From IMG/VR virus record IMGVR_UViG_3300047994_000277, positions 1 through 64,000 of that record: a stretch of DNA of 64,000 nucleotides, one strand, 5' to 3'. The notes beneath the pieces are model-generated. The model was not told the DNA's origin and searched no databases. It worked only from the letters and a program-made list of their open reading frames with translations. Every line of letters starts with the position of its first letter. Within the stretch, counting starts at the first letter, position 1. Made by a program: the position numbers and the translations under genes. Of the stretch, positions 10,567 through 60,779 are shown one piece after another. This DNA is from a virus. Its lineage: Duplodnaviria > Heunggongvirae > Uroviricota > Caudoviricetes.

Positions 10567-10568
10567 AT

Positions 10569-10898: not shown

Positions 10899-10955
10899 TT
10901 GACGAAGTAAGTCTGTTTGTGGCAGACTGTATTTAGGTTTTTTAAGGAGAATAAC

Positions 10956-14212: not shown

Positions 14213-14220
14213 GTCCATCC

Positions 14221-14252
14221 GCCGGGGAGCCCTTCGGGGCTCCCCTTTTTTA
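14221..14252 (+). terminator. rho-independent terminator or attenuator
   Basis: Hairpin GGGGAGCCC-TTCG-GGGCTCCCC followed by TTTTTTT, between the substrate-binding gene and the permease gene. Confidence 0.75.
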
Positions 14253-14266
14253 TTGAAAGGCTTTTT

Positions 14267-21236: not shown

Positions 21237-21677
21237 ATGATTAAATACGTTAAGGGAGATCTGTTTGAGACCAAGTGCAACATAATCGCCCACGGCTGCA
21301 ATTGTCGCGGCGGCTTTGGATCTGGTGTGGCTTATACGATGGCCATGAAATATCCTAAGGTCAGGGACATGTATCTGGAAAAGCACGAAGAGGAAGGTTG
21401 GAAGCTTGGAGACGTTCAGTTCGTAAGAGTACGAGATGGTCGAGTTATTGCTAATTGTGCTACTCAGTACAATTATCTCCCTCGCGGCGTGTGCCATGCT
21501 AGTTATGATGCTATTCGAAAAGCCATGCAGACCGTTAAAGAGTATGCGGTAAATAACGATTTGTCCGTTGCGATTCCTAAAATTGGCGCTGGACTCGCAG
21601 GCGGAGATTGGGATAAAATCGAAAGTATCCTCGAAGAAGTTTTCTCCGATTACTCCATCACGGTGTACGTCTTATGA
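21237..21677 (+). CDS. macro-domain protein (ADP-ribose binding/hydrolase)
   Basis: IIAHGCNCRGGFGSGVA aligns to the macro N-x(6)-GGG-V motif. IPKIGAGLAGGDW aligns to the second glycine-rich motif. Confidence 0.8.
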   Translation: MIKYVKGDLFETKCNIIAHGCNCRGGFGSGVAYTMAMKYPKVRDMYLEKHEEEGWKLGDVQFVRVRDGRVIANCATQYNYLPRGVCHASYDAIRKAMQTVKEYAVNNDLSVAIPKIGAGLAGGDWDKIESILEEVFSDYSITVYVL

Positions 21678-32254: not shown

Positions 32255-32740
32255 ATGGAAATCATTAAGTTCCCAGATGAAAGACTTCTTACTCCGTGTA
32301 AGCCCGTAACGGTCTTTACACCAGAGTTAAAGATCCTGCTGCAGTCTATGTGGGAAACCATGGTAGCCGCTAAAGGCGTTGGGCTTTCTGCCAATCAGGT
32401 CGGCCTCGAATACCGCATGTTCGTTATGGACGAGCATATTGAAAAGCATTTCATAGTTAATCCTGTAATCCTAGAAGCCGGTAAGCTCGCTTGTGATTTG
32501 GCCGAAGGATGCCTCAGCGCTCCAGGACAGACGATTAAGTTGAATAGGCCTAATTGGGTCACGCTGCGGTATCAGGATGAAAACGGTGAGTTCAGGCAGC
32601 GAACCTTCGTGGGTATTTATTCCGTTTGCGTGCAACACGAGATCGAGCATTTGGATGGAAAGTCTTTTTTGCTTAATAAGGCTATTCCCAAAAAGCTCCG
32701 TATTTTCCTTGCTAGCAAATGGGGTCTCAAAGTAAAATAA
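32255..32740 (+). CDS. def: peptide deformylase
   Basis: GLSANQVG, EGCLS and QHEIEHLDG motifs. Confidence 0.9.
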   Translation: MEIIKFPDERLLTPCKPVTVFTPELKILLQSMWETMVAAKGVGLSANQVGLEYRMFVMDEHIEKHFIVNPVILEAGKLACDLAEGCLSAPGQTIKLNRPNWVTLRYQDENGEFRQRTFVGIYSVCVQHEIEHLDGKSFLLNKAIPKKLRIFLASKWGLKVK

Positions 32741-36723: not shown

Positions 36724-36948
36724 CTAACAATTGATCAGAGATTCAGTTCCAATACTGCCCGTCAATCCTTTGTGGATTGCGGCCAATGTCTTTTGATGTT
36801 CCGCATTTCCATGGGAAGGATCGATCTCATGCTTAAAAACCATATTCAGATGATTTCGAATCACTTTAAGCTGATCGGGAGTAACTTCTGTGGCTCCAGA
36901 GATCTCAAAGAATCCTTGAAGCCAATAAGCGAAATCTCTACTGGTCAT
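36724..36948 (-). CDS. hypothetical protein (74 aa)
   Basis: Last gene of the minus block. Overlaps the upstream gene (ATGA-type). Confidence 0.45.
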   Translation of the reverse strand: MTSRDFAYWLQGFFEISGATEVTPDQLKVIRNHLNMVFKHEIDPSHGNAEHQKTLAAIHKGLTGSIGTESLINC

Positions 36949-37184
36949 GGCTTTCCATGTCCCGCTGACTGTCTTTCGACTCTTTTTTCAGTTTGATATG
37001 CTCTAGAAAGCTCGTCGCATTTTTGGTCGCGAGCTTCAGGGTTCACGGTTCCATGGACGCCTTGTACGCGCAAGTCCTCAGAGACTTGGTTAACTCCAGC
37101 GCGACAGCCCAGTGCGTATTCGGTAGGGCCAGTAGCGCAGCTAGTAAGCATAAGAACGATAAGAATCAGGTAAGGGTACTTCAT
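36945..37184 (-). CDS. small lipoprotein
   Basis: LMLTSC lipobox. Confidence 0.5.
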   Translation of the reverse strand: MKYPYLILIVLMLTSCATGPTEYALGCRAGVNQVSEDLRVQGVHGTVNPEARDQKCDELSRAYQTEKRVERQSAGHGKP

Positions 37185-37624
37185 TTTTGGTTCCTTTCAA
37201 GTTCACGGATAGTAGCCGTGGTTGCACCATGCAGCCGAGGCTCTTGTGATTCGAGAATCTTTCTTTCGGCAGGGATATCCCTGTGAAGAGCGGCATTTTC
37301 AGTAAATTTGTCGCCATAGCGGGCTTTAAGCTTGGCGATATTTTTGCCCATAATATCGGCAAAACTAACCCCAAGGGCGTCTGACATGATGGCCATGTAC
37401 CAAAATAGGTCGCCCAGCTCTTCTGCGAGATTGACTTTGTCCAGAGGCTTTCCGTAAAAAATAGCCTTCTTGAGTTGATCCTGGATTTCGCCAGATTCAG
37501 TGCAAAGGCCGATCGCGGCATGAAGCAATCGGATGTTCTCGCTGGTTCCCATGCGACCAGAGATGGCTTCGAAATTTGCAGATTCGGTTACGAGCGCGTT
37601 TTGTACATATTCTTTGGTATCCAT
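37181..37624 (-). CDS. mazG: MazG-like nucleoside triphosphate pyrophosphohydrolase
   Basis: LAEELGDLFWY EExGD motif. All-alpha. Confidence 0.8.
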   Translation of the reverse strand: MDTKEYVQNALVTESANFEAISGRMGTSENIRLLHAAIGLCTESGEIQDQLKKAIFYGKPLDKVNLAEELGDLFWYMAIMSDALGVSFADIMGKNIAKLKARYGDKFTENAALHRDIPAERKILESQEPRLHGATTATIRELERNQK

Positions 37625-37633
37625 CTTATTCTC

Positions 37634-37906
37634 CTAAAAGGTATACTTATTATCCTTAAATTTGTTACCGCCGTCAATAACTTTTAGCGGCGGATGTTTT
37701 CTTGGTTTCCTACAAAACTGGCAATAGAATTTGTGAATTTTAGCTCCGCCATATCTTATGGCCATTTTGTGCCAGCCGATCCCACATCGTAATTTTCTCC
37801 AACGGTTCATAGGTACACCGTCCTCGTAGGCAATTAAAAGTACCCCGAAGACCATACCGAAAAGACCGATAAGGCAAATTGCTGAAGTAGCTGATTCATT
37901 ATTCAT
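37634..37906 (-). CDS. membrane protein with C-terminal Cys cluster
   Basis: Transmembrane helix plus CGIGWH...CQFC. Confidence 0.45.
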   Translation of the reverse strand: MNNESATSAICLIGLFGMVFGVLLIAYEDGVPMNRWRKLRCGIGWHKMAIRYGGAKIHKFYCQFCRKPRKHPPLKVIDGGNKFKDNKYTF

Positions 37907-38223
37907 GTCGTATGATTAAATTTTTTGCACCATGTAGAGTGTTTAGGGGAGCCAACTGATTCTGAGCCGCACTCGCATTTAATCTCTTCGCGATGGGGTT
38001 CAAGAGCAAAGTTCGGATCGGTATTTTCACCAATAAGTTCCCAATCGGACAAACGTCCGAAAACCGTCGGTCTAGTGCGCCACTGCCAAGTTCTGTGAGC
38101 TTTATTGGTTCCTTGGTAAAATTCGACAAAAATTTGTCCATCTACCGGCGCTGAATGAAGTGGAGTGCCGTCAGGGCCGCTATACTGTGGATGGAATGTT
38201 ACTTGTATAGGATGCATTGCCAT
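37903..38223 (-). CDS. hypothetical protein
   Basis: ATGA-coupled to its neighbours. Confidence 0.45.
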   Translation of the reverse strand: MAMHPIQVTFHPQYSGPDGTPLHSAPVDGQIFVEFYQGTNKAHRTWQWRTRPTVFGRLSDWELIGENTDPNFALEPHREEIKCECGSESVGSPKHSTWCKKFNHTT

Positions 38224-38226
38224 ACT

Positions 38227-38715
38227 TCACCACTTTTGACTCAATTGAAGGGTGATGAAGTCGCGCCCTTCGTTTGGCTTCCAGATACCGGCGCTGCTAA
38301 TGTGCTCGTACTGGAGCCCAATGCCGTTATCGTGCTTATCTCTGACTCCTACGTAGAATTCTCCATTGAACTGAGGGAAGGCGCCGCCCAGCTGGGAATC
38401 TGGCCTTGTAATGGCCGCCAGGCCCCATCCGCTTCGGAATTCAACTGGGCTTAGGTCTACTTTGAGTCCCAGTCCAGAAGAGCCCCAGAAACTCGCTTTG
38501 CGACTGGTGTCAGGAGAATTCTCTCCCCAGTAGCCAAGTTTGTTTTGCCAATAAATTCCATACCATATCTCTTCTCGGTAGCCCACTTCGGCGTACTTAT
38601 TTTGGCTAAACGAGTGATCTGCGTCATGTAGGATACCTAGTCCGTATCCTAGAAAACCTTCATCGGCAACGCATAGACTGGGAATAAGTGCTAGAAATAA
38701 TAAGAGTTTTCTCAT
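38227..38715 (-). CDS. small outer-membrane beta-barrel protein, PagL-like lipid A deacylase candidate
   Basis: Signal peptide MRKLLLFLALIPSLCVA. Aromatic-rich alternating strands. EHISSAG matches the PagL H-x-S catalytic motif. C-terminal QKW. Confidence 0.5.
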   Translation of the reverse strand: MRKLLLFLALIPSLCVADEGFLGYGLGILHDADHSFSQNKYAEVGYREEIWYGIYWQNKLGYWGENSPDTSRKASFWGSSGLGLKVDLSPVEFRSGWGLAAITRPDSQLGGAFPQFNGEFYVGVRDKHDNGIGLQYEHISSAGIWKPNEGRDFITLQLSQKW

Positions 38716-38888
38716 TTAGTGTCTTTCATGCCGACCATTATCGGGCCAGCGATTGCGATGACAAACGCGCAAAATAGGAGATAGCAGGCGAATGGACTTC
38801 CAAGACATGCCGAGCCAAGGAGGTAAGCGCCTCCGAATGTCTTCAGAAAGAACAGCCAGACTTTACCGTAAGCCTTAACGCTTTCCAT
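38712..38888 (-). CDS. small membrane protein (58 aa, not in track)
   Basis: ATGA overlap with the PagL-like gene. Two hydrophobic segments. Confidence 0.4.
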   Translation of the reverse strand: MESVKAYGKVWLFFLKTFGGAYLLGSACLGSPFACYLLFCAFVIAIAGPIMVGMKDTK

Positions 38889-39087
38889 TGGCCCGCCTGT
38901 ATTCTGCTAGCTCTTTTTCAAGCCTTTCGGCCTGTTGGGAGAAAAACAGGTCTAGGTCGGTACCAATGCCGGAATCGTTTTTCCTGCTTACAGCGATGAG
39001 ATGCTTTAGGTGCATTTCTTTGGTGATGGGAGTGCGCCTGATGACAGCGGCCTTTTTGGTCTTAGTTGTCTTTTTCTTCTTAGCCAT
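38875..39087 (-). CDS. small basic protein
   Basis: MAKKKKTTKTKK. Start at the internal ATG at 39087 rather than 39105. Confidence 0.4.
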   Translation of the reverse strand: MAKKKKTTKTKKAAVIRRTPITKEMHLKHLIAVSRKNDSGIGTDLDLFFSQQAERLEKELAEYRRANGKR

Positions 39088-39220
39088 GCTATTTCTCCTA
39101 ATCATACCGTGCCATGTTCCGCTTTTACAGTCAATCTTTATTACCTGACCGTCTAAGTATGCAATAACCTTATGATATAACCAAACGAGGCTATCTGTAA
39201 GCCATCGGAATCTTTGTTAT

Positions 39221-42085
39221 ATGAAGAAAGAGCTTTTGATTAGTGCGAAATTTAACACCCAGGACTTCGATAAGTCCGTGGAAGGTATGCAGAATAAGCT
39301 AAAAAGCTTATACACGCCTACTGACAATATGCGTCAGCAGCGCCGTACCGAGAATCGTATGGCGGCAGCGGGCATCGAAAATCCAAGAAAGCCGGTCACT
39401 AAGGACCAATACGACCAAACTGTTAAGAAAACTCGAAGAGATCTCGATACTTACATTCGAGACGAGGTAAAAAAACAGGATAAGCTCACTAAGGTCATGG
39501 ATCAAAGAGAAAATAAGCTTGATGATCTGAAAAAGAAAAAAGAAGAAGTTTCTCAAAACGCCCGCGCTGATGTGGATAAGCAAGATAAGCTCAATCAGAT
39601 GATTTTGCGCAGCCAGGAAAGTCAAAAGGGCATGCGCAAGCAGGAAATTGAAGCGATCAATAAAGCTAAGGAACTTTCCGGCGAACGAGAGGAGACTAGC
39701 GGCAAGATCTCCAAGAAAGAAAAGAAGATCGCCGAACTGAAAGAAGAGTCAAAAGAACTACCAGAAGGCAGCCCTGAAGCCAAGAAAATGGATGGCAAAA
39801 TCGCCAGACATGAAAAAGACCTCTCTAAGCTAAAAGGCACTCATGCGCAACAAGATGAAGCCGCTTTGAAGGCCAATAAGGACGCTCTGGCTATTCAAGA
39901 CAAGCTTTTCCAGTCCGAAAATGGCCTTGTCAGAATGAAAGAAATGGCAGCCAAGCAGGCTCAGGCTGTTTCTAAGAGCGCCAAAGAAGAGTTAGATCTC
40001 AAGACCAAAATCGCTCGTGTGGAAGAAAACAATGGTCGCTTAAAAGAACTCCAGCGGCAGCGCGAAGCCGTTATCGGTCAGGCGTTAGATGCTCGTCGTT
40101 CAGTCACTCCTTCCTCTTGGAAAGAAATTGGCGAGAACATGAAGGATCGCGGTATCTGGAATACCATGAAGGATATTCCAGGTGCCGTTAAGGCCAACCC
40201 TATGGGCATGGTCGGTGGCGCCATGGGCAGCATCGGCTCTTTGGCCATAGCGGGCGGCGGTCTGTACAATACCATGCAGCAGTCCCAGGCCATTGGTCAG
40301 CAAGCAAAAGGTAGCGCCATCGCGGGCACCCTTGGTCAGGACACGGAAAACATTTATAATGGTCGTTCGGCATTCGAAGCTCAGTGGATGCGCGAAAGAA
40401 GCCAAGCAAGTGGCATGGCTGCTGAGCAAGCTAAAGGCAATAAGGTTTCTGATTCGACTAAAGTTTTCGGCGGCATCCTAGGTGGCATCGGAGCCGGTGC
40501 AGCTTACGGAGCAACCGCAGGTTCTGTTTTGCCAGGCGCAGGTACGCTTGCCGGCGGTCTTTTGGGCGGCGCAATTGGCGGTATTGGTGCAGGTGCTGGC
40601 CTCATGCTTGGCGATCGTACTCGCGAAAGAATGCTCGGAATGCTTCCTGGGGAATTTGGTGCAAAGCATCAAGACGCGTACAATTCTTTGATTGCACAGC
40701 AACAGGGCGCTGATAGAGCAAAAAATTATGAAGCGCTTAAAGAGCAAGACCCGCAGAAAAAGGCCGTGCTTGAGAAGTTTGAAAAGGATCGTCAAAACGA
40801 TCTAAATACTCAGCGCTCGTTGGGATTAAACGACCAAGGTCTTAACAGCTTTAAGCAACAAGCCACCTCGGCTGGATTTATGCCTGAACAAGCCGCTAAC
40901 ATGGCTCAATCCATTGTTGGCGCAGGCGGATCGGCTCGCATGGGCAGAAATGCTACTTTCGGTAATCAGATGGAAAGAGCTGGTTTGACCAACACCTCTT
41001 CTGTTCTGGGCACAATGAGCGGATCCATTCAGTCTCCAGAGTCTACTAAGAGAGCAACGATCAGCATCATGTCTGAAGCTTTCAAGATCGGTCTAGATAA
41101 TACTGATTTTGCTGAAGAGAACAGAAGGTTCACGCAATCGGCGGCTAATATCATCGGTCGTTCCGGCGCAAGCAATGCGGAAGACCAGGAAAAGCTAGTC
41201 GCTAAACTCGGCTCCTTCTTGGGCGAAAGAACGAATAAGGGCGTAGAAGCTGCAGACAACGCTTACGAGCGTGAGCAGCAACGCGGTTCCCAAGTCGGCG
41301 GACGCCGTGGAGCGATTCGTTTTACGGAAGCCATGAAGAATCCCATTCTGAGTCAGTTCGGAACTGGTGATCTCACAGAACTTTTGGCTGCACGTCCAGA
41401 TCAGCTGCAAGCGAATAGTCCATTTCTTCGTTCATATGCAATTCAGGCTCATACCACTCCCGAAAAGATCCTAGAAGCTCTTCAGAAGGGAACGGATGCG
41501 TCTAGGTTTTTGATTCCAGGAAGAAGAAAAGAAGCCACGGACATCGTTGGTAGGTTGAAACAGTACGCTTCCGAAAACAAGCTATCTGGATCTGAGTTCA
41601 CCGAAAGACTGAACAAGATGCCTGGCGAACAAGGCGCGTTGCCTGAAAATATCGTCAAGGACTACGGAAAGCTGCAAAGAATTAATCAGATGGAAAAATC
41701 TGAAGGCTACAATAAGTTTGAAAGTGAAGCCGACGTTAGCGGCCTTATCTTTGGTAACGGCACTTACGCTGGCGGTAAAGCTCCTAGCAAAGCTGCTGCT
41801 CAGCAAGCACTCGATCAAACCGGTGGCAGAATTGGTGACAAGTTTCAAGCTGCAAATTCTGAAGGTGCCGATCAAGCTCGAAAAGCTTTTATGGATCTGT
41901 ACTCTACCATTGAGCAAAACATTTCTAAGACTAAAGAGCTGAATACGGCAGCGGCTGACGCAGCTGCGTCTCTGAATAAGATCGCCAATACGGGTAGAGC
42001 TGAGCTTCCAAGGGGTAGCGCTACCAATGCAGAAGTTCTAACCCCTCTCATTCAACCTCAAGCTAATAAGCCAAGGGGACAATAA
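39221..42085 (+). CDS. tail tape-measure-like protein
   Basis: 954 aa. Long K/E coiled-coil N-terminus. Gly-rich membrane-like central segments. Confidence 0.55.
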   Translation: MKKELLISAKFNTQDFDKSVEGMQNKLKSLYTPTDNMRQQRRTENRMAAAGIENPRKPVTKDQYDQTVKKTRRDLDTYIRDEVKKQDKLTKVMDQRENKLDDLKKKKEEVSQNARADVDKQDKLNQMILRSQESQKGMRKQEIEAINKAKELSGEREETSGKISKKEKKIAELKEESKELPEGSPEAKKMDGKIARHEKDLSKLKGTHAQQDEAALKANKDALAIQDKLFQSENGLVRMKEMAAKQAQAVSKSAKEELDLKTKIARVEENNGRLKELQRQREAVIGQALDARRSVTPSSWKEIGENMKDRGIWNTMKDIPGAVKANPMGMVGGAMGSIGSLAIAGGGLYNTMQQSQAIGQQAKGSAIAGTLGQDTENIYNGRSAFEAQWMRERSQASGMAAEQAKGNKVSDSTKVFGGILGGIGAGAAYGATAGSVLPGAGTLAGGLLGGAIGGIGAGAGLMLGDRTRERMLGMLPGEFGAKHQDAYNSLIAQQQGADRAKNYEALKEQDPQKKAVLEKFEKDRQNDLNTQRSLGLNDQGLNSFKQQATSAGFMPEQAANMAQSIVGAGGSARMGRNATFGNQMERAGLTNTSSVLGTMSGSIQSPESTKRATISIMSEAFKIGLDNTDFAEENRRFTQSAANIIGRSGASNAEDQEKLVAKLGSFLGERTNKGVEAADNAYEREQQRGSQVGGRRGAIRFTEAMKNPILSQFGTGDLTELLAARPDQLQANSPFLRSYAIQAHTTPEKILEALQKGTDASRFLIPGRRKEATDIVGRLKQYASENKLSGSEFTERLNKMPGEQGALPENIVKDYGKLQRINQMEKSEGYNKFESEADVSGLIFGNGTYAGGKAPSKAAAQQALDQTGGRIGDKFQAANSEGADQARKAFMDLYSTIEQNISKTKELNTAAADAAASLNKIANTGRAELPRGSATNAEVLTPLIQPQANKPRGQ

Positions 42086-43981
42086 ATGTCTCAAGCTTTC
42101 ATTAAATTCATCGGTCCCAATGGAACCAATGATAGCGAATCTAACTTCATCCACCAGACCAGTCCGGCATGGGTGTTGACCTTTATTCGCTGGAACGTGA
42201 GAGACACGCTCAGAGCCATCCCTTCAACGGGTAGTGGAGACGAGCTGCTGTCGGTGCGCTCGCCGCTTGTGGTGGAAAACGATTGCATTAACCTGTCTGT
42301 GAACGTCAACAAGGGTACGCTTACCCCTTCCATGCAAGCCGTCCTTAAAGTTTCCGATGTAAACTATACCACGTCTATCGCACCTGGAGACTTTGTTTTC
42401 GTTAACATGCTCAATTGGGAAGTCGATGCGCGTAGGATTGTGGAAACGGTTAGAAACAATACCAATACGGCCATTAACAGACAGAGCGATGGCTTTAAGG
42501 GCCTCTTCAAAGTTCAAAGTGTGCGAGAGAAGCTAGGTATTGACGCCAATGGCAATAAGTCGTTGACGGTTCACATCACCGGCTTCGGATTTACCGAATT
42601 CAACAATTCCATTTATTTTAACCCATACCTGCGCAGAGACAATCAGGGAAGCGACAAGGACGACCTCCTTTTTGTGACTAATATTGGTACGGATTACTCT
42701 CAACTGATTAACCCAGATACCAATCCGCTTTGCCAAGATCTGATCAAGCACTTGATCCAGTCCTTTATTGGCGTCGGCGTTAGCGATCAGGGCGTTACTT
42801 CTATTGATGGTATTAGGGTTACAGAAAATGTTCATTTTTACATCCCTCAGCAGGTAGGAACGTTACTTGGCGTTCAGAACACTGAAGCGGCTAAGGACAT
42901 CTACAATTACGTTTTTGGCATTCAGCAATACAGCGGCTCTGCCAATTCCTCTTTGGCTACTGGCACCAACCCTTCTAATTTGGTCACGCCAGCCGTAGAC
43001 CGATTCTATTATACCGATCAACCTTGCGCAGGCACTTCTCTGCTCAAGGCTGAGTACTGGAACCAACTAAACGCTTGGTCAATTCTGAATCAGTACGTGA
43101 ATGCTCCTCTCAATGAGCTTTATACCTGTTTCAAAATCTCTCCTTCTGGATACGTGATGCCTACGGTTATCTTTAGGCAAATCCCTTTCACCTCTGAGTC
43201 TTTTGGTGATGACCCCTTTGATATCGATGCCGAAGTTACCTACTTCTTGAACCTTCCTCGCTGGAAGGTCAGTTCGGGACTGATCATCTCTACCGACCTG
43301 GGACGTGATGAAGCGGCACGTATTAATTTTGTCCAGTACTATGCTCAACCTCCTACCGATCCAGGTAAGCAGGAAGCGTACATGTCCGCGCAAACGGGTT
43401 CAAAGAACTACGTTTACGACATTAACGATGTCTCTAGAAGTGGCTTGAGGCCAATGGTCGTAACCACTTCCTTCGAAGACCTTACCATTACGAACGACGA
43501 GAACATTGGAAGACGCTGCGCGCTTATCGTTGGCGATGCGGTGATCGGTGAGCACTTGAAGTTCAATGGAACTATTGAGTGCGCGGGCATCGTAGACCCA
43601 ATCGCTGTAGGGGACAACTTCGAATATAATGGCAACGTCTATCACATCGAAGAAGTTAACCACGTCTGTAGCATCGAACCCGCTCAGGGCAATAAGATCT
43701 TTAGAACGATCTTGAGATTAAGCCACGGCGTCTCTTTGGCTAACTTTGGAACGGCACTTTCTTACCCAGAAATGATCCATACCAGCGCCTACAGAAACAG
43801 ACAGTCTAATTTTGAAAACGGTAACGGTGTGCTCCCAGGAGTCTCTGAAGAGCAGGATGTTTCGTATAGAACATCTGGTTCATCGCCATCTGATTCAGAA
43901 ATTAATGCCGGCGACCAACCTTTTGCCCAACCCGGTCAAGTAATCAGTTCACCGCAGGATTCGGAGGATGACAGTGAGTAA
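42086..43981 (+). CDS. tail/baseplate structural protein
   Basis: 631 aa. Abuts the tape-measure stop. Confidence 0.5.
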   Translation: MSQAFIKFIGPNGTNDSESNFIHQTSPAWVLTFIRWNVRDTLRAIPSTGSGDELLSVRSPLVVENDCINLSVNVNKGTLTPSMQAVLKVSDVNYTTSIAPGDFVFVNMLNWEVDARRIVETVRNNTNTAINRQSDGFKGLFKVQSVREKLGIDANGNKSLTVHITGFGFTEFNNSIYFNPYLRRDNQGSDKDDLLFVTNIGTDYSQLINPDTNPLCQDLIKHLIQSFIGVGVSDQGVTSIDGIRVTENVHFYIPQQVGTLLGVQNTEAAKDIYNYVFGIQQYSGSANSSLATGTNPSNLVTPAVDRFYYTDQPCAGTSLLKAEYWNQLNAWSILNQYVNAPLNELYTCFKISPSGYVMPTVIFRQIPFTSESFGDDPFDIDAEVTYFLNLPRWKVSSGLIISTDLGRDEAARINFVQYYAQPPTDPGKQEAYMSAQTGSKNYVYDINDVSRSGLRPMVVTTSFEDLTITNDENIGRRCALIVGDAVIGEHLKFNGTIECAGIVDPIAVGDNFEYNGNVYHIEEVNHVCSIEPAQGNKIFRTILRLSHGVSLANFGTALSYPEMIHTSAYRNRQSNFENGNGVLPGVSEEQDVSYRTSGSSPSDSEINAGDQPFAQPGQVISSPQDSEDDSE

Positions 43982-44957
43982 CGTTTTGCCTAATGGAACA
44001 GTTCTGCCTCATGGACTTTTGAGCGGTGGCTCAAATCCTAAGTTTGAAGCTTTCAAGAAAACCTTTCAGAATACCGCTCTTAGAGTTGGCATCATCATGG
44101 AGTCTTATCCTATTGATGATGACGACAACCTGAACGGTCTATTCCCAGAATACGACGTGATGTCTTTTGAGCAGAACGAAGATCAGGGATCTACCACAAT
44201 CACTTACAAGCATTGCCTCGCATCCTCTTCTTTTGGATCCGTTGCCGACTTTTTTGAAGCAAATCTAAGAAAGATGGAAAGAAACGACGGCGACGGCGTC
44301 ACCCCAGACTTTGCAAAGCAAAACGGAGCTATCGTCCTCTTACTTTGCTTAAACGGTATGTCCGATACGGGCATTATTATTAGCTCCCTTGCTCATCCAG
44401 ATAGGGAAACGACCCTTCAAGACGGCGATCCGCACCTGGAAGGCGAATATAACGGTGTTCGAGTCAAAGTTGAATCCGATGGCAGTACGTCCTTGGTCTT
44501 TAAAGGCGCTACCGATAACGATGGCGAAGTCATCGACGAGTCTCAGGGCGATACCACTATCCAAATCGAGACGGATGGGTCGTTCCAGGTCGATCACGAT
44601 ACGATTACTTTCAGAATGGACAGAAGTGGCGTTGTTACTTTGAACGCTAAAGATGAAATCGACATCACAACCGATACGGATCTGAACATTAACGTCCAGG
44701 GCGATGTAAACATCACCGTTAACGGAGATGCCACGGTAAACGTGGACGGCAAAGCTGACGTTCAAATCGGAGCCGATGCTAACGTTCAAGTTGGCGGCGA
44801 CTGTAACCTCACCTCTAGCGGCAAAACGGTCGTTCAGGCTTCAGAGATCAATCTCAACGGTCAATCCGGCATGATCCTTACGACGGTTACAGATCCGGTG
44901 ATCGATACCATTTTCGGCGTTCCTACAACGGGCGTTCCTACGGTGAAATCAGGATAA
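43968..44957 (+). CDS. baseplate central spike-like protein with beta-helix repeats
   Basis: Repeats INVQGDVNITVNGDATVNVDGKADVQIGADANVQVGGD (gp5/VgrG-like 8-residue periodicity). Confidence 0.55.
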   Translation: MTVSNVLPNGTVLPHGLLSGGSNPKFEAFKKTFQNTALRVGIIMESYPIDDDDNLNGLFPEYDVMSFEQNEDQGSTTITYKHCLASSSFGSVADFFEANLRKMERNDGDGVTPDFAKQNGAIVLLLCLNGMSDTGIIISSLAHPDRETTLQDGDPHLEGEYNGVRVKVESDGSTSLVFKGATDNDGEVIDESQGDTTIQIETDGSFQVDHDTITFRMDRSGVVTLNAKDEIDITTDTDLNINVQGDVNITVNGDATVNVDGKADVQIGADANVQVGGDCNLTSSGKTVVQASEINLNGQSGMILTTVTDPVIDTIFGVPTTGVPTVKSG

Positions 44958-50665: not shown

Positions 50666-53600
50666 ATGGCATCTGATCTCCCAGAACCACAGTCTTATGA
50701 GCAAATTTTGTCCGACATGCTGTCGGCCTATGCTGCCAAAGTTGGTATTAACGATTTTAACGTCGGTTCGGCAGTTACGAGCTTCTTTGAAGTCGTAGCG
50801 CTGGCCACAGCCCGCTCGTCCGGGGACGTGTTCCAGATCCTTAAGGATTTCTCGGTAGATAGAGCTACCGGCGACTCCCTGAAGCGCCTGGCTACTGAAA
50901 ACGGTATCGTTCCTATTTCTGCCCGTCCAACGACTGGTTTGGTGAACGTTGTCGATGTCAGTTTTACCAAGATTTCGACCAAGATCTATTCTGGCCTGAA
51001 TCCCCCAAATATCGGCTCGACTACGATCAATGTTAGCGACGCTTCTAAGTTCCCTTCGAGTGGAAGCCTTTATCTGGGTCGCGGTACTCCAAACGTTGAA
51101 GGTCCCATTCCTTATTCAGTTGCTCCAGTCCAAAACGGTGGTTATTGGATCTTCACGTTGACCAATCCAACTACCAAGTTCCATAACCTTGGCGAGACGA
51201 TCATTCTGGCTCAAGGCGGCAATCGCGCCGTCCCTGCTAATGCCATCGTAAACTCTCCAGGCGTTGGCGCAAGCTCTGATATCCAGTACTCCGTAACCAC
51301 GGCAGCTGTCGTACTTGACGGCGAAACCGAAGTTGACGGTGTATCCGTTACGGCTCTTAACCCAGGTTCGGCTGGTAACGTCCCATCGGGCGCTATTAAG
51401 ACATTCTCTGCTCCTCCTTTTAACGGTGCAACCGTTACTAACCCACTTCCCTTCACTACTGGCGCAGATAGCGAAACTGATGACCAGCTTCGCGTTCGCG
51501 TTAAAAACGCACTCGCTTCGACTGGTTTGGGAACGGCCACTGCTGTTAAAGCGGCTTTGATCGGCGCAACTCCTTCTGACGAGCAGGCTACTATCGTTAG
51601 CGATTCGCTGCAGATCAACACCGATGGTTCTGCGATCGTTTTTGTGGACGACGGCAATGGCTATGAAGAAAAAAGCGCTGGCGTCGGTATTGAATCGATC
51701 GTCGATAGTGCTATTGGTGGCGAACAGTTCTTCTCTCTCCAGACAGGTGGACGCCAAGCTCCAGTAGCTAAGGCGTATCTGCAAACCACCCTATCTGCCC
51801 CTTTTGATCTTATCGGCGGTGACACTCTCGCAGTGGTCGTTGGCGGTATTACGTATCAACATACGTTCTCCACTTCCGATTTCCGTTCCCCAGGTGGCGC
51901 AACAGCGTTTGAAGTTACGGCTTCGATCAACGCCGACACCTCCTTGGGCTTTGAAGCTACAACGGCGGGTGGCGGTCTTTACGTGGTTATCCGCGCAAAA
52001 GCTGAGGAACATGATAGCATTCAAACTATCGTTCCAACGCTTCAATCTGGGCGCGATGCATCTGTTCAGATGGGCTTCCCATCGAATTTGGTTCAGACCA
52101 TTCGTATTTACAAGAACCGCATTCCTCTTTCGAAAGATGGCTCTACCGCCTCGGTGTTTAGCCAAACTCAGCAATTGTGGTCTAACGCCATTCAAAATGG
52201 CGATACGCTCATTTTGGCTGTGGATGGAACCGCTTCCATCACGTACACGATTCTTGACTCTGATTTCCTGGCGACTCAGCTTTACACAAGCGTCGCTGCC
52301 ACGAACTCTTTGGCATCTTGGGCACAAGTGCTCAATGCAAAGCTTACGGGCGTGACGGTTACTATTTCTGGCCAGCAGCTTGAAATCACCTCTAACCTAG
52401 ATGCTTCTGATAGAGCAAAAATTGTTATCGACCCATCGTCCACCTTGGTTAATAAGGGCATGTTCTCTTCTAGCCTGGGTCTGTCGGAAACGGGCGCGGC
52501 GTCAGACTTTACTTTGGATCGCAACACTGCGCAATTCCAACTCGTTACTCCTTTGGAAAAGGGCGATAACCTGAGTGCAGGTACGAACGATACGCAGGGA
52601 ACTATTGTTGGTGATTCTATTTCTGGCGGAAGTATTACTCTTCCTTCGGACGCACATCTTTGGCTTCTCATTGATGCGCCAGGCACCATCATCGCAACCG
52701 GAGTTGTTGCCAATACGAACCTCGCAGTTTCTACCCCAGCTGCAAATACGATCAGATACACTTCTTCTGTTTCAAATGCATTCGCAAACGTCCTGCCAGG
52801 CGATTACGTGATCGTGTGGTCGGCAGAGCTTCCATCTGCTTCCGATCGCATCGAAGGCCGTGTCAATGCAGTTGGAGCCAATACACTTGATGTGGTCATT
52901 ACGCCTACCGAATATGCTGCCATCGTAACTACTGCCGGCATCGTATTTTTGAATGGCTTTACGGTTCTCAGAAGTGTCAATGCTCCTCAGAAATTCAAAG
53001 TTGCTGCGGGCAATAAAACCCTTGATCAAATTGCTCAAGAGCTTCAAGCTCAAACGAGCAACGTACAATTCAGCGTTGTGCAAGAGCTTTACCTGTCCAT
53101 CAACACGACCACTATGGATACCACCGGTTCCATTATGGTTATTACCGCCGATACGCAAGGCGAGCTGCTTGGCTTTACGTCGAATACGTCTGATGAAAGC
53201 AAAGACTCTTTGATCGCTTTCTATGACAGTGGTGACTACGAAGCACAGCTTCCTGTTTTCTTGCATTCTTCTTTTGCTGCCGGATCTGCCGCTGATCCAA
53301 TCGATAGCTACATTACTTCGTTTACCTCCGCAGTTTCCTTGGCTAACCGCGATCCAAACGAACTGATCTGTGTACTCCATCCTTATGGATCGGTTAGAGA
53401 TGCCCAGCCCTATGGCGAGCACACACAGGAAACATCCATTTCCGGCACGACCATTGGTGTCGTAGGCCAGCCAGATATTCGCCGTCTCCGTTCGATCGAT
53501 CGTTTCTTCATTGCAAATCCTCTTGATTTCGGTAGCCAAGATACGGCTGTTGTCGTCCTTGACAATGACCCAAGTAACGAAAGTTTCACGATCCCATTCT

Positions 53601-56600
53601 ATCGTCGCGGTATCACCAATACTGGCTACGCCGTTAATCAGTATAACTTCAATGCATACGATGTAGACTCTGGTTCAACTGCGAACTTCACCTCGGCATT
53701 TGGTTCTTTTGATTTCTCAAACTTCAAAGTCTTGATGCGCGCGAAGAAGGTCCTTAAGCCAACTCCTAGTCAAACGGCAATTCTGTATAGGGCTACGCGT
53801 TGGGGAAGAAGCGGCGAGAAGGTCACGGTGGGTTATGCCTATCCTTCTGCTCCTAATGCGGCTATCGGAAGCACTGTTATCGTGGGAACTACGGTTAACA
53901 TTCTGATCAATCTTTCATCGGGTACAGCCGTTAACTCTTCGATCAACGCTTCTACGCAGTGGAATATTACGGTTACGGCCAACACTCCTTCTGCCGGTAT
54001 TGATCAAGTTACGTACACCTGGAATGGTGTGGGTACGGCTCCAGCCCTCAGCCTGTCTGGCGGCGAGTATGTTAACATTACCACTCAGACCAATTTTAAT
54101 GCCGCAAACGATGGTATCTTCCGCGTATCTACGCAAAGTGGATTTACTCCAACGGCAACGGCTTTCTCGGTTCAAAGACCTACCGGTGTTGCAGTTGCAG
54201 AGTCCAACAAATCTAGCGGTATTAATGGAGCTATTTCGTTCTATCGTTCTTCCACGACAACCGCTGCGGACGTTGCTACATATGTTAATACCAACCTATC
54301 TCAATACGTTTCAGCAACGATTGTGAACGATGGCGGTATCACAGGTGCAGGCGGGATCGTTCTCAGTACCTGGGAAGACAGCGGTTTCACATACAGTTTC
54401 GTTCAACTTAAGGACGGCATTAACTGGATCGCGTCTAGCAACTTGACCGGCTCTCCTCAGTTTGTATTCAAAACTCCTCTCGCCCTTTCTAGCGATGTCG
54501 GATATGCTTTCAATAACGGTGAAGAAGTGCGCTTGATCCCAACCACTATGGATCAGGTCAGTCGCCTGATTTCCATCTTGGCCGTTACCGGTTTCTCTAC
54601 GATTGGCTCGATCAATCTCGTCGATCGCGCTCAGCGCCTTGAGCTAGCTACTAGCGTTCTCGGCTCCAGCGGTTCCATCCAGATCATCGGTGGTCTGGGC
54701 AATGAATACCAAGTTCCTATCTTGGATTCTGGTCAGCGTCTCGACAATACTTACATGACTGCATCCGTTGATACGGTTGCCGGCCAAGGCATTCATTCTG
54801 ACCAGTGGTTTAGACTTCAAGCTACGCAGTTCCAGAATAAAATCGCAGGATTTTCTTCCAATAGCAGCGTGACTACGCTCGGTAACACTCCAACGTCTAA
54901 TCAGACGACCATCCAAATGCTTGGAAGAAATCTTACCCAGCGTTACTTTGGTAAGCCAAGAAATCACGTTCGCACTCGCAGTCGCACCTTCAGGGTCGAA
55001 AAGCAGGGCTCGCTGGTCTGTATTAGCTGGAACGGAACTGGTTCGTCTCCAAACTTCCTCAAGTCTCCGCTGAACTTCAACGATTCTGCTGGCGGAACGG
55101 TCAACGTCTCTTTGGTTAGTGGAACTAGCGACGCCCAGTACACGATCTTGACTGGAAATACGAACTTTACCGAACTCTCTATCGGCGATTTGATCACGAT
55201 TTCTGGAATGCCTAAAGCTGTAAACAACGGTACCTTCCCGGTATCTGGCGTGTCAGATAACGGCACGGTGATTCAGGTCACGAATCCAAGCGCTGCAAAT
55301 CAGTTCTCGTCTGGTACTTTTACCCTGGTTACGAACTCTACCTCTGGCGATAACTTCCTGGTCGGTGCTACTCATTTGATTGCCGGAACCAACTTCGCTA
55401 TCGGCGGAACGGCCCAGATCACCGCAGCTAACCTGGCAGCTACCATCGCCGCTCTTCCTCAAGTTACCTGTGCGGCAAACGGAAACGTTGTTACGGTCAC
55501 AGGTACGTTTGCCAATCAGAGTCTGGCTCTCGGCTACAGTGGAACGGGAACGGTCACAGTAAGCGGTGCCTCAATCGTCGGTACGACCTTCTCTGCTGGA
55601 CAATTCTCGGCTTCGAGCAGCGTTTCGGAAGGCGATACGGTCACTTTAGGTTCGCCTTTCTCGGTCTTGAATCAAGGACGTTTCAGAGTCATTCGTAGGT
55701 ACAACAATTCCTTCTACATCGAGAACTCTAACGTGGTTGAAGAAGAAGTTACGCTTCCTTTTAACTCGATCAATATTGGATTCGATTCTACGACCTCGTT
55801 TAAGGTCAACGCTACCAATCATACGTTGTTCTTGAATTGGAACGGTATTGGAACTGAGCCACATCTAGAAAACGCTCATATGGGAGATGTCCTTACCGTA
55901 GGTACGGATTTTAACTCCGCCAACCAAGGCATTTTCATGGTTCTCGATTCGGGTGCAAAACTCAATCAGATTGCTCAATTCGTCATGCCTACTGGCGCAC
56001 AACTGTCGCCTACCGGTGCGGGTAATTATTTCAAAATCAATAACGCCTCCAACGTAAACCAGTATTATGTTTGGTTTAACGTGAACGGCGGTAACTCGGA
56101 TCCAGCCCCAGGCGGCGGACTCGTAGGTGTGCAAGTTGCCGTATTGAACGGTGACAACGCTACCACGGTTGCATCCAAAGCCGCAACGGCCATTAACACG
56201 GGTACGGTTGGTATCACGGCTACCTTCTCTAGCAATGTGCTCACCAGCACTTTGGCGGGCTTTGTTCCTACGAATGATCCAGTCAACGTTACCATGCCTG
56301 CTCCGTTCAGCGTGACCATTGTCCAAGAGGGACGCACGACGTTCGTTGAATGTATCAATCCTTCTGCAGTTAATCAATCCACCGTACTCGTCACTGGCGG
56401 GGTCTTGCAAGTTCACAGACCTCAGATGCAGTTCTGGGAGTACGAAGCAACCGTTCCAGGTGACAAATACGTTGTCTCTGGATCCGTGATTGGCTCGTCC
56501 AACGCTGGAACGTACAACGTTATCCAAGTCATCAGCCGCGATAGCATCGTGGTCTCCGGTAACCTGTCTAACGTATCCAACGTGAGCATGAACGGTAATG

Positions 56601-57229
56601 AAACGGCCATCTTCGTCCAAGAAGGCGTTTTGTACTCTGGTTACAAGCATGTCTACCTGACTACGGCTCAGCCCGGAACGACTTCCAGAAGCGAGATCTT
56701 GTTCAGAAGCAACGCTCAGTACCCTAAGATCAATCAGTCTGCCGGCGTCCAAATGACCTCTCTGAGCAAGTTGAACTTCTCAACGGTTCTTCGTAGCGGT
56801 CTTGACAGCTATCGTTATAACACCGGCTTAATCGCAGAAGCTAACCGTATCATCTACGGTGACCCTCGCGACCCAGTGACCTACCCAGGCGTCGGCGCTG
56901 CAGGTGCAGATATCTTCGTTCGTGCTCCTCTCGCTTACCGTATCCAGGTCTCGGTTGACGTTCGTCTGTTGACCGGTGCTCCGTTCAATAACGTTGCTCA
57001 GCAGATCCGTAGCTCGGTTTCGTCTCTGATCAAGTCCAACCCTGTTGGTCAGTCCATCGATATCAGCTCGATCGTTGCGGCGGTTCGCGCCGTTCCAGGC
57101 GTTCAATCGGTTGCCGTTACCTCTCCTCAGTACGACTCAACTCATGACTTGATCACCTTGGTTCCTGCTCAAAAGGCTATCATTGTCGATCCTACGACCG
57201 ATATCTCTGTCGATCAGATTGGTGGTTAA
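50666..57229 (+). CDS. giant tail fiber/adhesin-like protein
   Basis: 2187 aa, Thr/Ser/Gly/Asn/Val-rich. Repeated unit of about 45 aa with W-N-G-x-G-x-x-P (three copies). C-terminal YYVWFNVNGGNSDP domain shared with the 62041 ORF. Confidence 0.7.
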   Translation: MASDLPEPQSYEQILSDMLSAYAAKVGINDFNVGSAVTSFFEVVALATARSSGDVFQILKDFSVDRATGDSLKRLATENGIVPISARPTTGLVNVVDVSFTKISTKIYSGLNPPNIGSTTINVSDASKFPSSGSLYLGRGTPNVEGPIPYSVAPVQNGGYWIFTLTNPTTKFHNLGETIILAQGGNRAVPANAIVNSPGVGASSDIQYSVTTAAVVLDGETEVDGVSVTALNPGSAGNVPSGAIKTFSAPPFNGATVTNPLPFTTGADSETDDQLRVRVKNALASTGLGTATAVKAALIGATPSDEQATIVSDSLQINTDGSAIVFVDDGNGYEEKSAGVGIESIVDSAIGGEQFFSLQTGGRQAPVAKAYLQTTLSAPFDLIGGDTLAVVVGGITYQHTFSTSDFRSPGGATAFEVTASINADTSLGFEATTAGGGLYVVIRAKAEEHDSIQTIVPTLQSGRDASVQMGFPSNLVQTIRIYKNRIPLSKDGSTASVFSQTQQLWSNAIQNGDTLILAVDGTASITYTILDSDFLATQLYTSVAATNSLASWAQVLNAKLTGVTVTISGQQLEITSNLDASDRAKIVIDPSSTLVNKGMFSSSLGLSETGAASDFTLDRNTAQFQLVTPLEKGDNLSAGTNDTQGTIVGDSISGGSITLPSDAHLWLLIDAPGTIIATGVVANTNLAVSTPAANTIRYTSSVSNAFANVLPGDYVIVWSAELPSASDRIEGRVNAVGANTLDVVITPTEYAAIVTTAGIVFLNGFTVLRSVNAPQKFKVAAGNKTLDQIAQELQAQTSNVQFSVVQELYLSINTTTMDTTGSIMVITADTQGELLGFTSNTSDESKDSLIAFYDSGDYEAQLPVFLHSSFAAGSAADPIDSYITSFTSAVSLANRDPNELICVLHPYGSVRDAQPYGEHTQETSISGTTIGVVGQPDIRRLRSIDRFFIANPLDFGSQDTAVVVLDNDPSNESFTIPFYRRGITNTGYAVNQYNFNAYDVDSGSTANFTSAFGSFDFSNFKVLMRAKKVLKPTPSQTAILYRATRWGRSGEKVTVGYAYPSAPNAAIGSTVIVGTTVNILINLSSGTAVNSSINASTQWNITVTANTPSAGIDQVTYTWNGVGTAPALSLSGGEYVNITTQTNFNAANDGIFRVSTQSGFTPTATAFSVQRPTGVAVAESNKSSGINGAISFYRSSTTTAADVATYVNTNLSQYVSATIVNDGGITGAGGIVLSTWEDSGFTYSFVQLKDGINWIASSNLTGSPQFVFKTPLALSSDVGYAFNNGEEVRLIPTTMDQVSRLISILAVTGFSTIGSINLVDRAQRLELATSVLGSSGSIQIIGGLGNEYQVPILDSGQRLDNTYMTASVDTVAGQGIHSDQWFRLQATQFQNKIAGFSSNSSVTTLGNTPTSNQTTIQMLGRNLTQRYFGKPRNHVRTRSRTFRVEKQGSLVCISWNGTGSSPNFLKSPLNFNDSAGGTVNVSLVSGTSDAQYTILTGNTNFTELSIGDLITISGMPKAVNNGTFPVSGVSDNGTVIQVTNPSAANQFSSGTFTLVTNSTSGDNFLVGATHLIAGTNFAIGGTAQITAANLAATIAALPQVTCAANGNVVTVTGTFANQSLALGYSGTGTVTVSGASIVGTTFSAGQFSASSSVSEGDTVTLGSPFSVLNQGRFRVIRRYNNSFYIENSNVVEEEVTLPFNSINIGFDSTTSFKVNATNHTLFLNWNGIGTEPHLENAHMGDVLTVGTDFNSANQGIFMVLDSGAKLNQIAQFVMPTGAQLSPTGAGNYFKINNASNVNQYYVWFNVNGGNSDPAPGGGLVGVQVAVLNGDNATTVASKAATAINTGTVGITATFSSNVLTSTLAGFVPTNDPVNVTMPAPFSVTIVQEGRTTFVECINPSAVNQSTVLVTGGVLQVHRPQMQFWEYEATVPGDKYVVSGSVIGSSNAGTYNVIQVISRDSIVVSGNLSNVSNVSMNGNETAIFVQEGVLYSGYKHVYLTTAQPGTTSRSEILFRSNAQYPKINQSAGVQMTSLSKLNFSTVLRSGLDSYRYNTGLIAEANRIIYGDPRDPVTYPGVGAAGADIFVRAPLAYRIQVSVDVRLLTGAPFNNVAQQIRSSVSSLIKSNPVGQSIDISSIVAAVRAVPGVQSVAVTSPQYDSTHDLITLVPAQKAIIVDPTTDISVDQIGG

Positions 57230-59781: not shown

Positions 59782-60255
59782 TTATTTTCCTTTCAAGCAA
59801 GATTTGAAAAAAGCCTCGTGCTCCTCTTCAGCCCACTGCATTCCTTCGGCAGTGAGAATGATGTCATCGAACTTCAGCTTCTTGGCCTCGCGGATGATCT
59901 CTTTGTAGACATCTGCGCCCATGAGTTCTAGAATTTTAGCTCCCCACATGGCCGCGCGGTAGCCCATCACGTAACATCCGATCGAAACTGAACGTCCGAT
60001 TAAGAATAGAATCGAATCCATAACGACGTTGCTTTTGGTGCCAAATGACTTAAGAATTTCGTCCAGCTGTTCTCGATGATGCTGCTCTTCCAGCTGGATT
60101 TCTCTAATCTTCTTACCTTCCTTAGAGGTAAAAGGAAGGGTGCGCCAATGTCCCTCGTAAGCGTTGTACGCTCCGATCTCCACTGCATGAGCAAACTTGA
60201 GAAGAAAGATAAGTCTCTTCATGTCTTTGCTTTCAAAAGCTTCAACATCGCGCAA
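59782..60255 (-). CDS. ferritin-like di-iron carboxylate fold protein
   Basis: ExxH pairs (EEQHH, EEEH) about 84 aa apart, with upstream Glu residues. All-alpha. Confidence 0.45.
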   Translation of the reverse strand: MRDVEAFESKDMKRLIFLLKFAHAVEIGAYNAYEGHWRTLPFTSKEGKKIREIQLEEQHHREQLDEILKSFGTKSNVVMDSILFLIGRSVSIGCYVMGYRAAMWGAKILELMGADVYKEIIREAKKLKFDDIILTAEGMQWAEEEHEAFFKSCLKGK

Positions 60256-60779
60256 TACATGTAAAACGTGTTAACGGCATCATCGCAGCCGTCGTGTTTT
60301 TGGCCCCGGAAAGCCAGTCCGACCTTGGTCATGGAGCGTGCGAGGCCACCTTGGATGGGCTGACCGTTGGCAAATCTCCAAGAAACGAACAACGTTTTAG
60401 TGTCGATGTGACGCCTGCCAAAGCACCAGCCCTCGAAATGCGGATTTTCTTCTTTAAGCTGCTTAAGGAGTTCTCGATCATCTCCGCCACCCCAAGTAAT
60501 GGGATTAACGAAACAATCGTAGTTTGCGTGCATCTTTTTGACCCTATTGTAGGCCTCTTCCAAAGTGCCTGCATTTCGTACATCGTCATCGGTAATTCCG
60601 GTCAGTTCCGTAATGAAAGGAACGATGGGTTCACCAGGATTAACGAAAATAGAGAGTTTATCAAGTATTTGACCGGTAGCGATGTTACCGACGCAAGCAC
60701 CGATTTGAATGATCTTGCCCGAAGGCTGATTCATCTCTAGATCTATCGCAAGAAATATTTCAATTGGTTTCATGTTCAT
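60219..60779 (-). CDS. DEDDh 3'-5' exonuclease (DnaQ/RNase T-like)
   Basis: Exo I LAIDLEMN. Exo III HDGCDDAVNTF. Confidence 0.75.
   Translation of the reverse strand: MNMKPIEIFLAIDLEMNQPSGKIIQIGACVGNIATGQILDKLSIFVNPGEPIVPFITELTGITDDDVRNAGTLEEAYNRVKKMHANYDCFVNPITWGGGDDRELLKQLKEENPHFEGWCFGRRHIDTKTLFVSWRFANGQPIQGGLARSMTKVGLAFRGQKHDGCDDAVNTFYMYCAMLKLLKAKT

Follow-up and report, generated by a model that had tools for sequence, protein, structure and literature searches.

The window analysed here comprises 64,000 nucleotides of a Caudoviricetes virus (positions 1 to 64,000 of IMG/VR record IMGVR_UViG_3300047994_000277), and its minus strand carries, at 38227-38715, a gene whose product was confirmed by profile and fold comparison as a divergent member of the PagL family of lipid A 3-O-deacylases. 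It is likely that this gene encodes an active PagL-type serine esterase, made by the infected cell for the phage, and the phage probably rewires the outer membrane of its host in the course of infection.

In a Pfam scan at E <= 1, PagL (PF09411) was the sole family matched by the protein, at 48.6 bits (E = 1.2e-12; gathering cutoff 23) and with coverage of profile positions 3-134 of 136, and neither OmpW nor any other outer-membrane-protein family appeared; a first-pass annotation of the same DNA had suggested this HMMER comparison of PagL with OmpW, and the outcome favours PagL. A profile built from 27 homologues retrieved the PagL of Pseudomonas aeruginosa (2ERV) at E = 2.6e-6. Similarly, AlphaFold2 run on a 27-sequence alignment yielded a confident model (predicted local distance difference test (pLDDT) 90.1, predicted template-modelling score (pTM) 0.81) with eight strands, at residues 19-27, 39-51, 54-65, 75-87, 91-102, 115-125, 130-140 and 150-161. 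Foldseek ranked 2ERV as the top PDB match of this model (E = 1.9e-6, template-modelling (TM) score 0.61-0.68), while other small barrels (OmpW, OmpA/OmpX/Ail-Lom and PagP) gave generic fold matches only, at 7-14% identity. The Pfam match, the profile match to 2ERV, the fold and the catalytic residues described below agree with each other and with the first-pass proposal of a PagL-like small outer-membrane beta-barrel. Since automatic pipelines already label relatives of the protein as PagL, it belongs to a known enzyme family and not to a new one.

The open reading frame (ORF) runs from an ATG at 38715 to a stop at 38227 and specifies 162 amino acids (aa). Its N-terminus, MRKLLLFLALIPSLCVA followed by DEGF, was read by eye as a basic n-region, a hydrophobic core and a small-x-small cleavage site, and a Sec-type signal peptide is predicted, with signal peptidase I cleaving after Ala17 and before Asp18. 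The homologues agree with this reading, as they carry ...VALA or ...AQA immediately before DE, i.e. A-x-A ahead of a conserved DE, and in the AlphaFold2 model a low-confidence N-terminal helix precedes strand 1, which begins at residue 19. The C-terminus (...LQLSQKW) ends in the aromatic Trp162, the final residue being W, F or L in 165 of 198 relatives. The signal peptide, the length of 162 aa and the terminal aromatic residue had all been described in the first-pass annotation and were borne out, as was the EHISSAG sequence with its His-x-Ser motif, which occupies residues 137-143 and places His138 and Ser140 in alignment with His126 and Ser128 of PagL.

Where the HMMER alignment is free of gaps, residue n of the query corresponds to 2ERV residue n-12, and His138, Ser140 and Asp152 (codons 38302-38304, 38296-38298 and 38260-38262, checked on the sequence) align with His126, Ser128 and Glu140 in the numbering of the 2ERV chain, the reported catalytic triad of PagL. 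In the model, the active-site segment extends from the end of strand 7 through extracellular loop 4 into the start of strand 8. According to an earlier report (PMC4958258, citing Geurtsen 2005 and Rutten 2006), PagL activity requires the His and the Ser. Among the 198 relatives, His138 is kept in 194 and Ser140 in 193, and the accompanying Asn148, Gly150 and Arg151 in 193, 194 and 188, respectively; position 152 is Asp in 167 and Asn in 26, and position 137 varies freely between K, E, N, R and T. Conserved His138 and Ser140 amid variable surroundings are what a functioning active site would be expected to show. Judged from the alignment, Asp152 in place of Glu140 is a conservative change. His138 and Ser140 would sit at the extracellular rim of the modelled barrel, with Asp152 placed opposite His138 by the hairpin register. 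Extracellular loop 3 contains near-invariant Asp106, Leu109 and Gly110 residues (Asp106 is kept in 197/198), its Asp106 region aligns with the D-Q-N-L-G segment of 2ERV, and the loop is probably part of the substrate site.

The gene is well represented in related phages. A word-index search returned 48 homologues, one at 100% identity on an 85.8-kb contig, 46 at 52-69% and one at 37%; PF09411 was carried by all 48, and 47 were 143-183 aa long, most of them 160-169 aa. Genomic contexts were read for P0015, P0021, P0046, P0023, P0110 and six IMG/VR loci, and all of them displayed three large tail genes, PagL, usually a 90-aa membrane protein, and nucleotide-metabolism genes beyond. The order of tail genes, PagL and 90-aa protein recurs in contigs L001, L003, L006-L010, L017/18 and L083/84, which come from independent samples and measure 164-177 kb; in at least eight separately assembled relatives of about that size, PagL keeps its place beside the tail module. 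Five independent assemblies range from 164,153 to 176,870 bp, and this size, like that of Myxococcus phage Mx1, suggests that they are complete genomes. In these relatives, the tail proteins are ~47-51% and PagL 54-61% identical to those of the window. The PagL of L017/18 (L017 8001-8507) shares just 33% identity with that of the window. Both it and the neighbouring 90-aa protein gene are encoded on the tail-gene strand, immediately upstream of the tail genes, whereas in the window the two are transcribed divergently from the tail genes; the tail proteins of L017/18 are as similar to those of the window (~50%) as in the other relatives, and the arrangement suggests an inversion or a replacement at a fixed site. 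Because the tail proteins are ~50% identical and the position is nevertheless the same, PagL has been kept at one spot through deep divergence. This kept position in a deep clade, together with the recurrence of the gene in unrelated phage lineages, points to a real fitness benefit for the phage.

The gene content of the carrier is that of a phage, and its relationship to Mx1 is a distant one. The window encodes both the large and small subunits of ribonucleotide reductase, ThyX, RNA ligase, polynucleotide kinase/phosphatase, peptide deformylase, MazG, baseplate proteins and a sheath-initiator. Three large tail genes occupy 39221-44957, and further into the tail/baseplate block a 2187-aa ORF (50666-57229, plus strand) lies between a 927-aa baseplate protein and a 635-aa protein. 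The guanine-cytosine (GC) content is even across the window, at ~0.47, and no tRNAs were found in it. That the PagL gene is phage-encoded, as the first-pass annotation had stated, is upheld by the ribonucleotide reductase, RNA ligase, baseplate and sheath-initiator genes and by a layout that recurs in many viral contigs. Its suggestion of lysogenic conversion fared less well and is unlikely, because the carrier belongs to a clade of large Mx1-related phages and none of the Pfam families listed (25 of 30) for 69 ORFs was an integrase in the window, which is itself part of a genome; the relatives are stand-alone contigs of ~164-177 kb and the nearest isolate is Mx1.

Beyond this clade, an exhaustive profile search yielded 468 cluster representatives at E <= 1e-3, or 321 at the stricter E <= 1e-10, and all ten members sampled (10/10) were metagenome-only. 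Distant members were found in a phage with DNA polymerase A and Rad52 (L013), in one with a P22-like portal and terminase (L016) and in a ribonucleotide-reductase phage in which PagL overlaps a Trypsin_2 protease gene (L014/15). The proximity to serine proteases was observed in three distant contigs (L014/L015 8001-9361, L013 6491-8564 and L005 3059-4419), with Trypsin_2 in two of them and Peptidase_S8 in the third. In L014/15, PagL and the protease overlap stop-to-start, and the Trypsin_2 protein starts with a hydrophobic stretch. PagL and a serine protease may form a recurring envelope-acting pair.

The balance between viral and cellular copies was assessed by running one degenerate DNA pattern, HxSxAGxxxPNxGR[D/N], on both collections. 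The bacterial set (596 Gb, 185,579 species genomes), for which we estimate ~35 chance matches, gave 63 stretches, including 4 strong members (125-174 bits) and 22 weak ones, the latter mostly ordinary Cupriavidus, Ralstonia and Burkholderia PagL. IMG/VR gave 71 stretches, of which 66 were true relatives and 40 strong. An earlier peptide-pattern scan of the bacterial genomes had returned no matches. By these sequence counts the subfamily is mostly viral. Three of the four strong bacterial matches are plainly chromosomal, two in Bdellovibrionota and one in Lysobacteraceae, and the fourth lies on a 2.9-kb contig. The closest cellular copy is that of L055 (Pseudobdellovibrionaceae), which shares 42% identity with the window protein. 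A neighbour-joining tree, built without bootstrap support, places it with P0038 and P0045 as sister to the window phage clade, and a long branch separates the subfamily from the Cupriavidus/Burkholderia PagL outgroups. The kinship with Bdellovibrionota, the sole clue to the host, hints at the hosts of this uncultured phage group and is best regarded as a lead and not as a finding. In the two Bdellovibrionota loci (L039 844-7534 and L055 531-6347), a surface-polysaccharide-type neighbourhood was observed for L039, where a GT4 glycosyltransferase gene and two genes for NAD-dependent sugar epimerases adjoin the PagL-like gene.

Among 50,697 records of deposited phage genomes, a 6-kb nucleotide search found no match, and neither did tblastn with four diverse family members at E <= 0.001-0.01. 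In BFVD, 17 matches were obtained at E <= 0.001. Their annotations read OmpA-like, opacity-like or OmpW-like, and none of those listed was named PagL or exceeded 18% identity.

The likely timing of expression was assessed from the neighbourhood of 38 non-identical IMG/VR copies, taking two ORFs on each side. Recurring neighbours were DNA polymerase A (5), Rad52 (4), peptide deformylase (3) and dGTP diphosphohydrolase (2), with dUTPase, DnaB, Mom, subtilase and lysozyme occurring once each. As these neighbours mainly belong to replication and nucleotide metabolism, PagL keeps company with early or middle genes and not with lysis or structural genes, and such a placement fits a protein that needs time for export, folding in the outer membrane and action.

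Taken together, a sequence of events can be proposed in which enzyme activity, export, the lipid A substrate, timing and benefit are all what we infer, the steps and their chemistry being taken from family membership. The precursor would be made in the infected cell, exported via the host Sec pathway and cleaved after Ala17, and the host beta-barrel assembly machinery (BAM) would insert the eight-stranded barrel into the outer membrane. The His138-Ser140-Asp152 triad would then lie at the level of the outer leaflet and, as in bacterial PagL, would cleave the ester bond that holds the 3-hydroxyacyl chain at position 3 of lipid A, leaving the host lipopolysaccharide (LPS) under-acylated. With expression before the late phase, the cell surface and the packing of the outer membrane would be altered while the phage replicates. 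The most likely benefit would be that the infected cell is shielded from further phage attack, possibly with more shedding of vesicles, and a role in lysis at the end of infection seems less likely. PagL expression alone has been shown to raise vesicle production in Salmonella without envelope stress responses (PMC4958258), and in P. aeruginosa the acylation state of lipid A can alter phage susceptibility (PMC10783630).

A broader version of this proposal, which we regard as rather doubtful, is that virulent environmental phages, including the ~165-177 kb Mx1-related clade and possibly with Bdellovibrionota-like hosts, deacylate host lipid A early in infection. This would constitute a new form of superinfection exclusion or receptor shedding through changed packing and vesicles, in which a Cys/His protein and a lipoprotein of the same operon would join PagL as a three-part envelope module. 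This broader version fits the conserved position, the intact active site and the count of strong members, which is 10-fold higher in the viral than in the bacterial collection.

Several points weigh against an active, early-acting lipid A deacylase. At the level of the family, the protein was unmatched in NCBIfam and PHROGs, a single-sequence search of solved structures reached 2ERV at a non-significant E = 1.2, and identity to 2ERV, the sole solved PagL, is 17-19%. The third triad position is Asp and not Glu, with Asn in 26 of the 198 relatives, and the putative geometry of the triad is derived from strand register. The presumed substrate is assigned by analogy with bacterial PagL and the presumed timing of expression is read from gene neighbourhood. 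In L013, PagL lies one gene from a lysozyme. In some phages PagL adjoins a secreted-type serine protease, and other envelope roles are possible.

One alternative is that the protein is an esterase of PagL ancestry that acts on another substrate, such as a different position of lipid A, an outer-leaflet glycolipid or phospholipid, or the acyl chain of a lipoprotein. The long branch from Cupriavidus/Burkholderia PagL and the low identity to 2ERV are in line with this, as are invariant features that the subfamily has as its own, namely G-R-D/N after the P-N-x motif and Asp106 in loop 3. Moreover, the closest cellular members come from genomes of Bdellovibrionota, whose lipid A is atypical. The key positions of PagL are, however, all kept, namely the His-Ser pair, the P-N motif and a third residue that is either acidic or an amide. 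The match to Pfam extends over the entire domain, and no other characterised activity is known for the PagL fold family. A change of substrate is considered unlikely.

Equally improbable, in our assessment, is a role as a helper of lysis, in which late deacylation of lipid A would loosen LPS packing so that the outer membrane fails after degradation of the wall, complementing or replacing spanins. In favour of it, no spanin pair was recognised in the window, a small lipoprotein and a membrane-anchored protein are encoded in the operon, and in L013 PagL lies one gene upstream of a Phage_lysozyme gene. Lysozyme was, however, found within two genes in just 1 of the 38 IMG/VR copies, typical neighbours being replication and nucleotide-metabolism genes, and the L013 ORF between PagL and lysozyme has no hydrophobic segment and hence is not a holin. 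The only candidate cell-wall hydrolase found in the window, an SLT transglycosylase (60760-61224), lies 22 kb off and outside the operon. In addition, over-expression of PagL in Salmonella triggered no envelope stress responses (PMC4958258). The gene is not located in a holin-endolysin-spanin cluster, and membership of a lysis cassette was rejected as the principal explanation after inspection of the neighbours in L013, L014 and L016 and of the SLT gene of the window. Finally, a non-enzymatic barrel with a structural role (receptor masking or binding of a host protein, as for lambda Lom) and PagL likeness by ancestry only is very improbable, for although small outer-membrane barrels are numerous in phages (the 17 BFVD matches), those listed show at most 18% identity and none of them is PagL-named, and His138 and Ser140 of the window protein are almost always kept while their surroundings vary freely.

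The preferred interpretation, that of a PagL-type deacylase produced during infection, also has to be seen in the context of the surrounding genes (Table 1). PagL is the third gene of an eight-gene minus-strand operon, which runs from 39087 to 36724 and is transcribed away from the tail module. The first gene, encoding a basic protein, has its start (MAKKKK...) at 39087; this start, already chosen in the first-pass annotation, is backed by an AGGAGA sequence 6 nt upstream and by homologues in L001, L002 and L003 that begin with MAKK, and the protein showed a marginal PHROG match only (E = 0.043). The 58-aa ORF that follows starts 14 nt ahead of the stop of the basic ORF, and its own stop overlaps the PagL start as ATGA. 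The first-pass description of these two small ORFs as coupled and downstream thus holds for the coupling, through the ATGA and 14-nt overlaps, but not for the direction, since the PagL gene is on the minus strand and they lie upstream of it. The 58-aa ORF was unmatched in PHROGs and NCBIfam, has a homologue with 33% identity at the equivalent position in L006 and is absent from L001 and L003, and is therefore not needed for PagL.

Table 1. Positions in the window of the PagL gene, its predicted parts and the neighbouring genes
Feature	Position	Strand	Basis
PagL-family precursor gene, 162 aa	38227..38715	(-)	ORF, Pfam PF09411, AlphaFold2 barrel, Foldseek top match 2ERV
Predicted signal peptide, codons 1-17 (MRKLLLFLALIPSLCVA)	38665..38715	(-)	Read by eye, homologues
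Predicted active-site segment, His138-Ile-Ser140...Pro147-Asn148-x-Gly150-Arg151-Asp152	38260..38304	(-)	2ERV alignment and conservation
Extracellular loop 3, residues 103-114 (TRPDSQLGGAFP)	38374..38409	(-)	Loop bounds from AlphaFold2 strands
First operon gene, 70-aa lysine-rich protein (MAKKKKTTKTKK...)	38875..39087	(-)	ORF, AGGAGA, homologues
58-aa ORF, two hydrophobic segments	38712..38888	(-)	ORF, upstream of PagL
106-aa ORF, C-terminal CECGSES...HSTWCKK (CECG...HSxWC) motif	37903..38223	(-)	Downstream of PagL
90-aa protein, N-terminal transmembrane helix and Cys/His-rich tail	37634..37906	(-)	Downstream of PagL
MazG-like nucleotide pyrophosphohydrolase	37181..37624	(-)	Pfam MazG 9.3e-7; phrog_229 1.3e-44
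Predicted lipoprotein, 79 aa, lipobox LTSC	36945..37184	(-)	ORF and homologues
Last operon ORF, 74 aa	36724..36948	(-)	Start overlaps preceding gene's stop by 4 nt
Divergent intergenic region between PagL operon (-) and tail module (+, from 39221), presumed promoter region	39088..39220	.	Gene layout

Downstream of PagL, the 106-aa ORF was unmatched in Pfam and PHROGs, and its CECG...HSxWC motif recurs in L003 (10492-10782) and L006 (10514-10786) and at the C-terminus of the L001 protein encoded at 10741-11322. The 90-aa protein has homologues of 42-50% identity directly after PagL in L001, L006, L008, L009, L010 and L017/18, and Cys/His proteins of 76-91 aa (C...H...CxxC) accompany PagL in most phages of the clade (window 37634-37906 on the minus strand, L001 11322-11597, L006 10806-11036, L017 8529-8780), including the 33%-identity PagL of L017/18. 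The 90-aa Cys/His protein may be a functional partner of PagL. A reading of this protein and the lipoprotein as a spanin pair was rejected for two reasons: the positive charges of the 90-aa protein lie after its helix and suggest that its C-terminus is cytoplasmic, whereas an inner-membrane spanin has the reverse topology, and the two genes are separated by MazG. At the MazG position, relatives carry a dUTPase. The predicted lipoprotein, which is similar in size to exclusion lipoproteins such as T5 Llp, has homologues with the lipobox LSGC and a common SEY-QGCRDG motif in L001 (11607-11828) and L003 (11231-11452). No promoter or terminator between 35700 and 39400 scored higher than expected from shuffled sequence; a single weak sigma-70-like site at 39201-39172 (minus strand) did not exceed chance.

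Elsewhere in the window, a putative ATP-binding cassette (ABC) importer was observed at 12686-16598 on the plus strand. Its first gene (12686-14212) encodes a 508-aa protein in which an NMT1/phosphonate-type periplasmic binding domain (residues 75-287) is fused to a C-terminal OmpA-family peptidoglycan-binding domain (residues 399-497), with relatives in Lak megaphages at 37-39% identity. The next three genes encode a permease (14267-15073), an ATPase (15073-15837) and a DUF3865 protein (15837-16598). Other host-like genes encode an SPFH/Band_7 protein (8909-9697, plus strand), a DUF1003 membrane protein (10533-10898, plus), a Macro domain protein (21237-21677, plus), a peptide deformylase (32255-32740, plus) and a COQ7-like di-iron protein (59782-60255, minus).

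If the predicted activity is real, lipid A remodelling would join the functions by which phages take over their hosts, and a possible link of infection with vesicle production and resistance to other phages in environmental bacteria would become testable. The protein would, moreover, be a simple, portable tool, ~145 aa in size, with which lipid A acylation could be lowered or the yield of vesicles raised.

In comparison with known systems, the protein resembles P. aeruginosa PagL (2ERV) and Salmonella PagL in its mature length of ~145 aa, its signal peptide and its eight-strand barrel, in an H-x-S motif at the extracellular end of strand 7 with an acidic residue, the putative third member of the triad, 12 residues after the Ser in strand 8, and in the P-N motif of loop 4 and the D-x-x-L-G motif of loop 3. 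It differs from them in its low sequence identity, in Asp or Asn in place of Glu140, in the G-R-D/N signature and in its setting in a phage operon, whereas Salmonella pagL is chromosomal and PhoPQ-controlled. The chromosomal copies of Bdellovibrionota and Lysobacteraceae (L055, L039 and L071) belong to the same subfamily and keep the same invariant residues; unlike the phage protein, they have short C-terminal extensions past the last strand, and they sit among glycosyltransferase, sugar epimerase, AhpC, LysR and RmuC genes. The closest deposited phage, Mx1 (OR576727.2, 169.6 kb), is similar in size and shares the gene order of the tail module, one of its tail proteins being 29.7% identical over 87% of the protein encoded at window 42086-43981. 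A PagL-like gene was found neither by the Mx1 tail module nor, by tblastn, anywhere in that genome, and the two Mx1 ORFs just upstream of the module are not PagL-like (hhalign probability < 1%).

Known effects of phages on the host surface include changes to the sugar portion of LPS and the insertion of proteins into the outer membrane. Lambda Lom (an eight-strand barrel), the T5 Llp lipoprotein and the O-antigen acetylases and glucosyltransferases of temperate phages alter the cell surface in infection or lysogeny, often blocking further adsorption. To our knowledge, none of them is a lipid A enzyme, and Lom is non-catalytic; the O-antigen modifiers target polysaccharide and belong to temperate phages. 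The literature searched contained no report of a phage PagL or of a phage lipid A-editing enzyme. The novelty thus lies in the phage setting and not in the enzyme family: unlike Lom, Llp and the O-antigen modifiers, the window PagL would target the lipid anchor itself, and its carrier is apparently a large, non-integrating phage.

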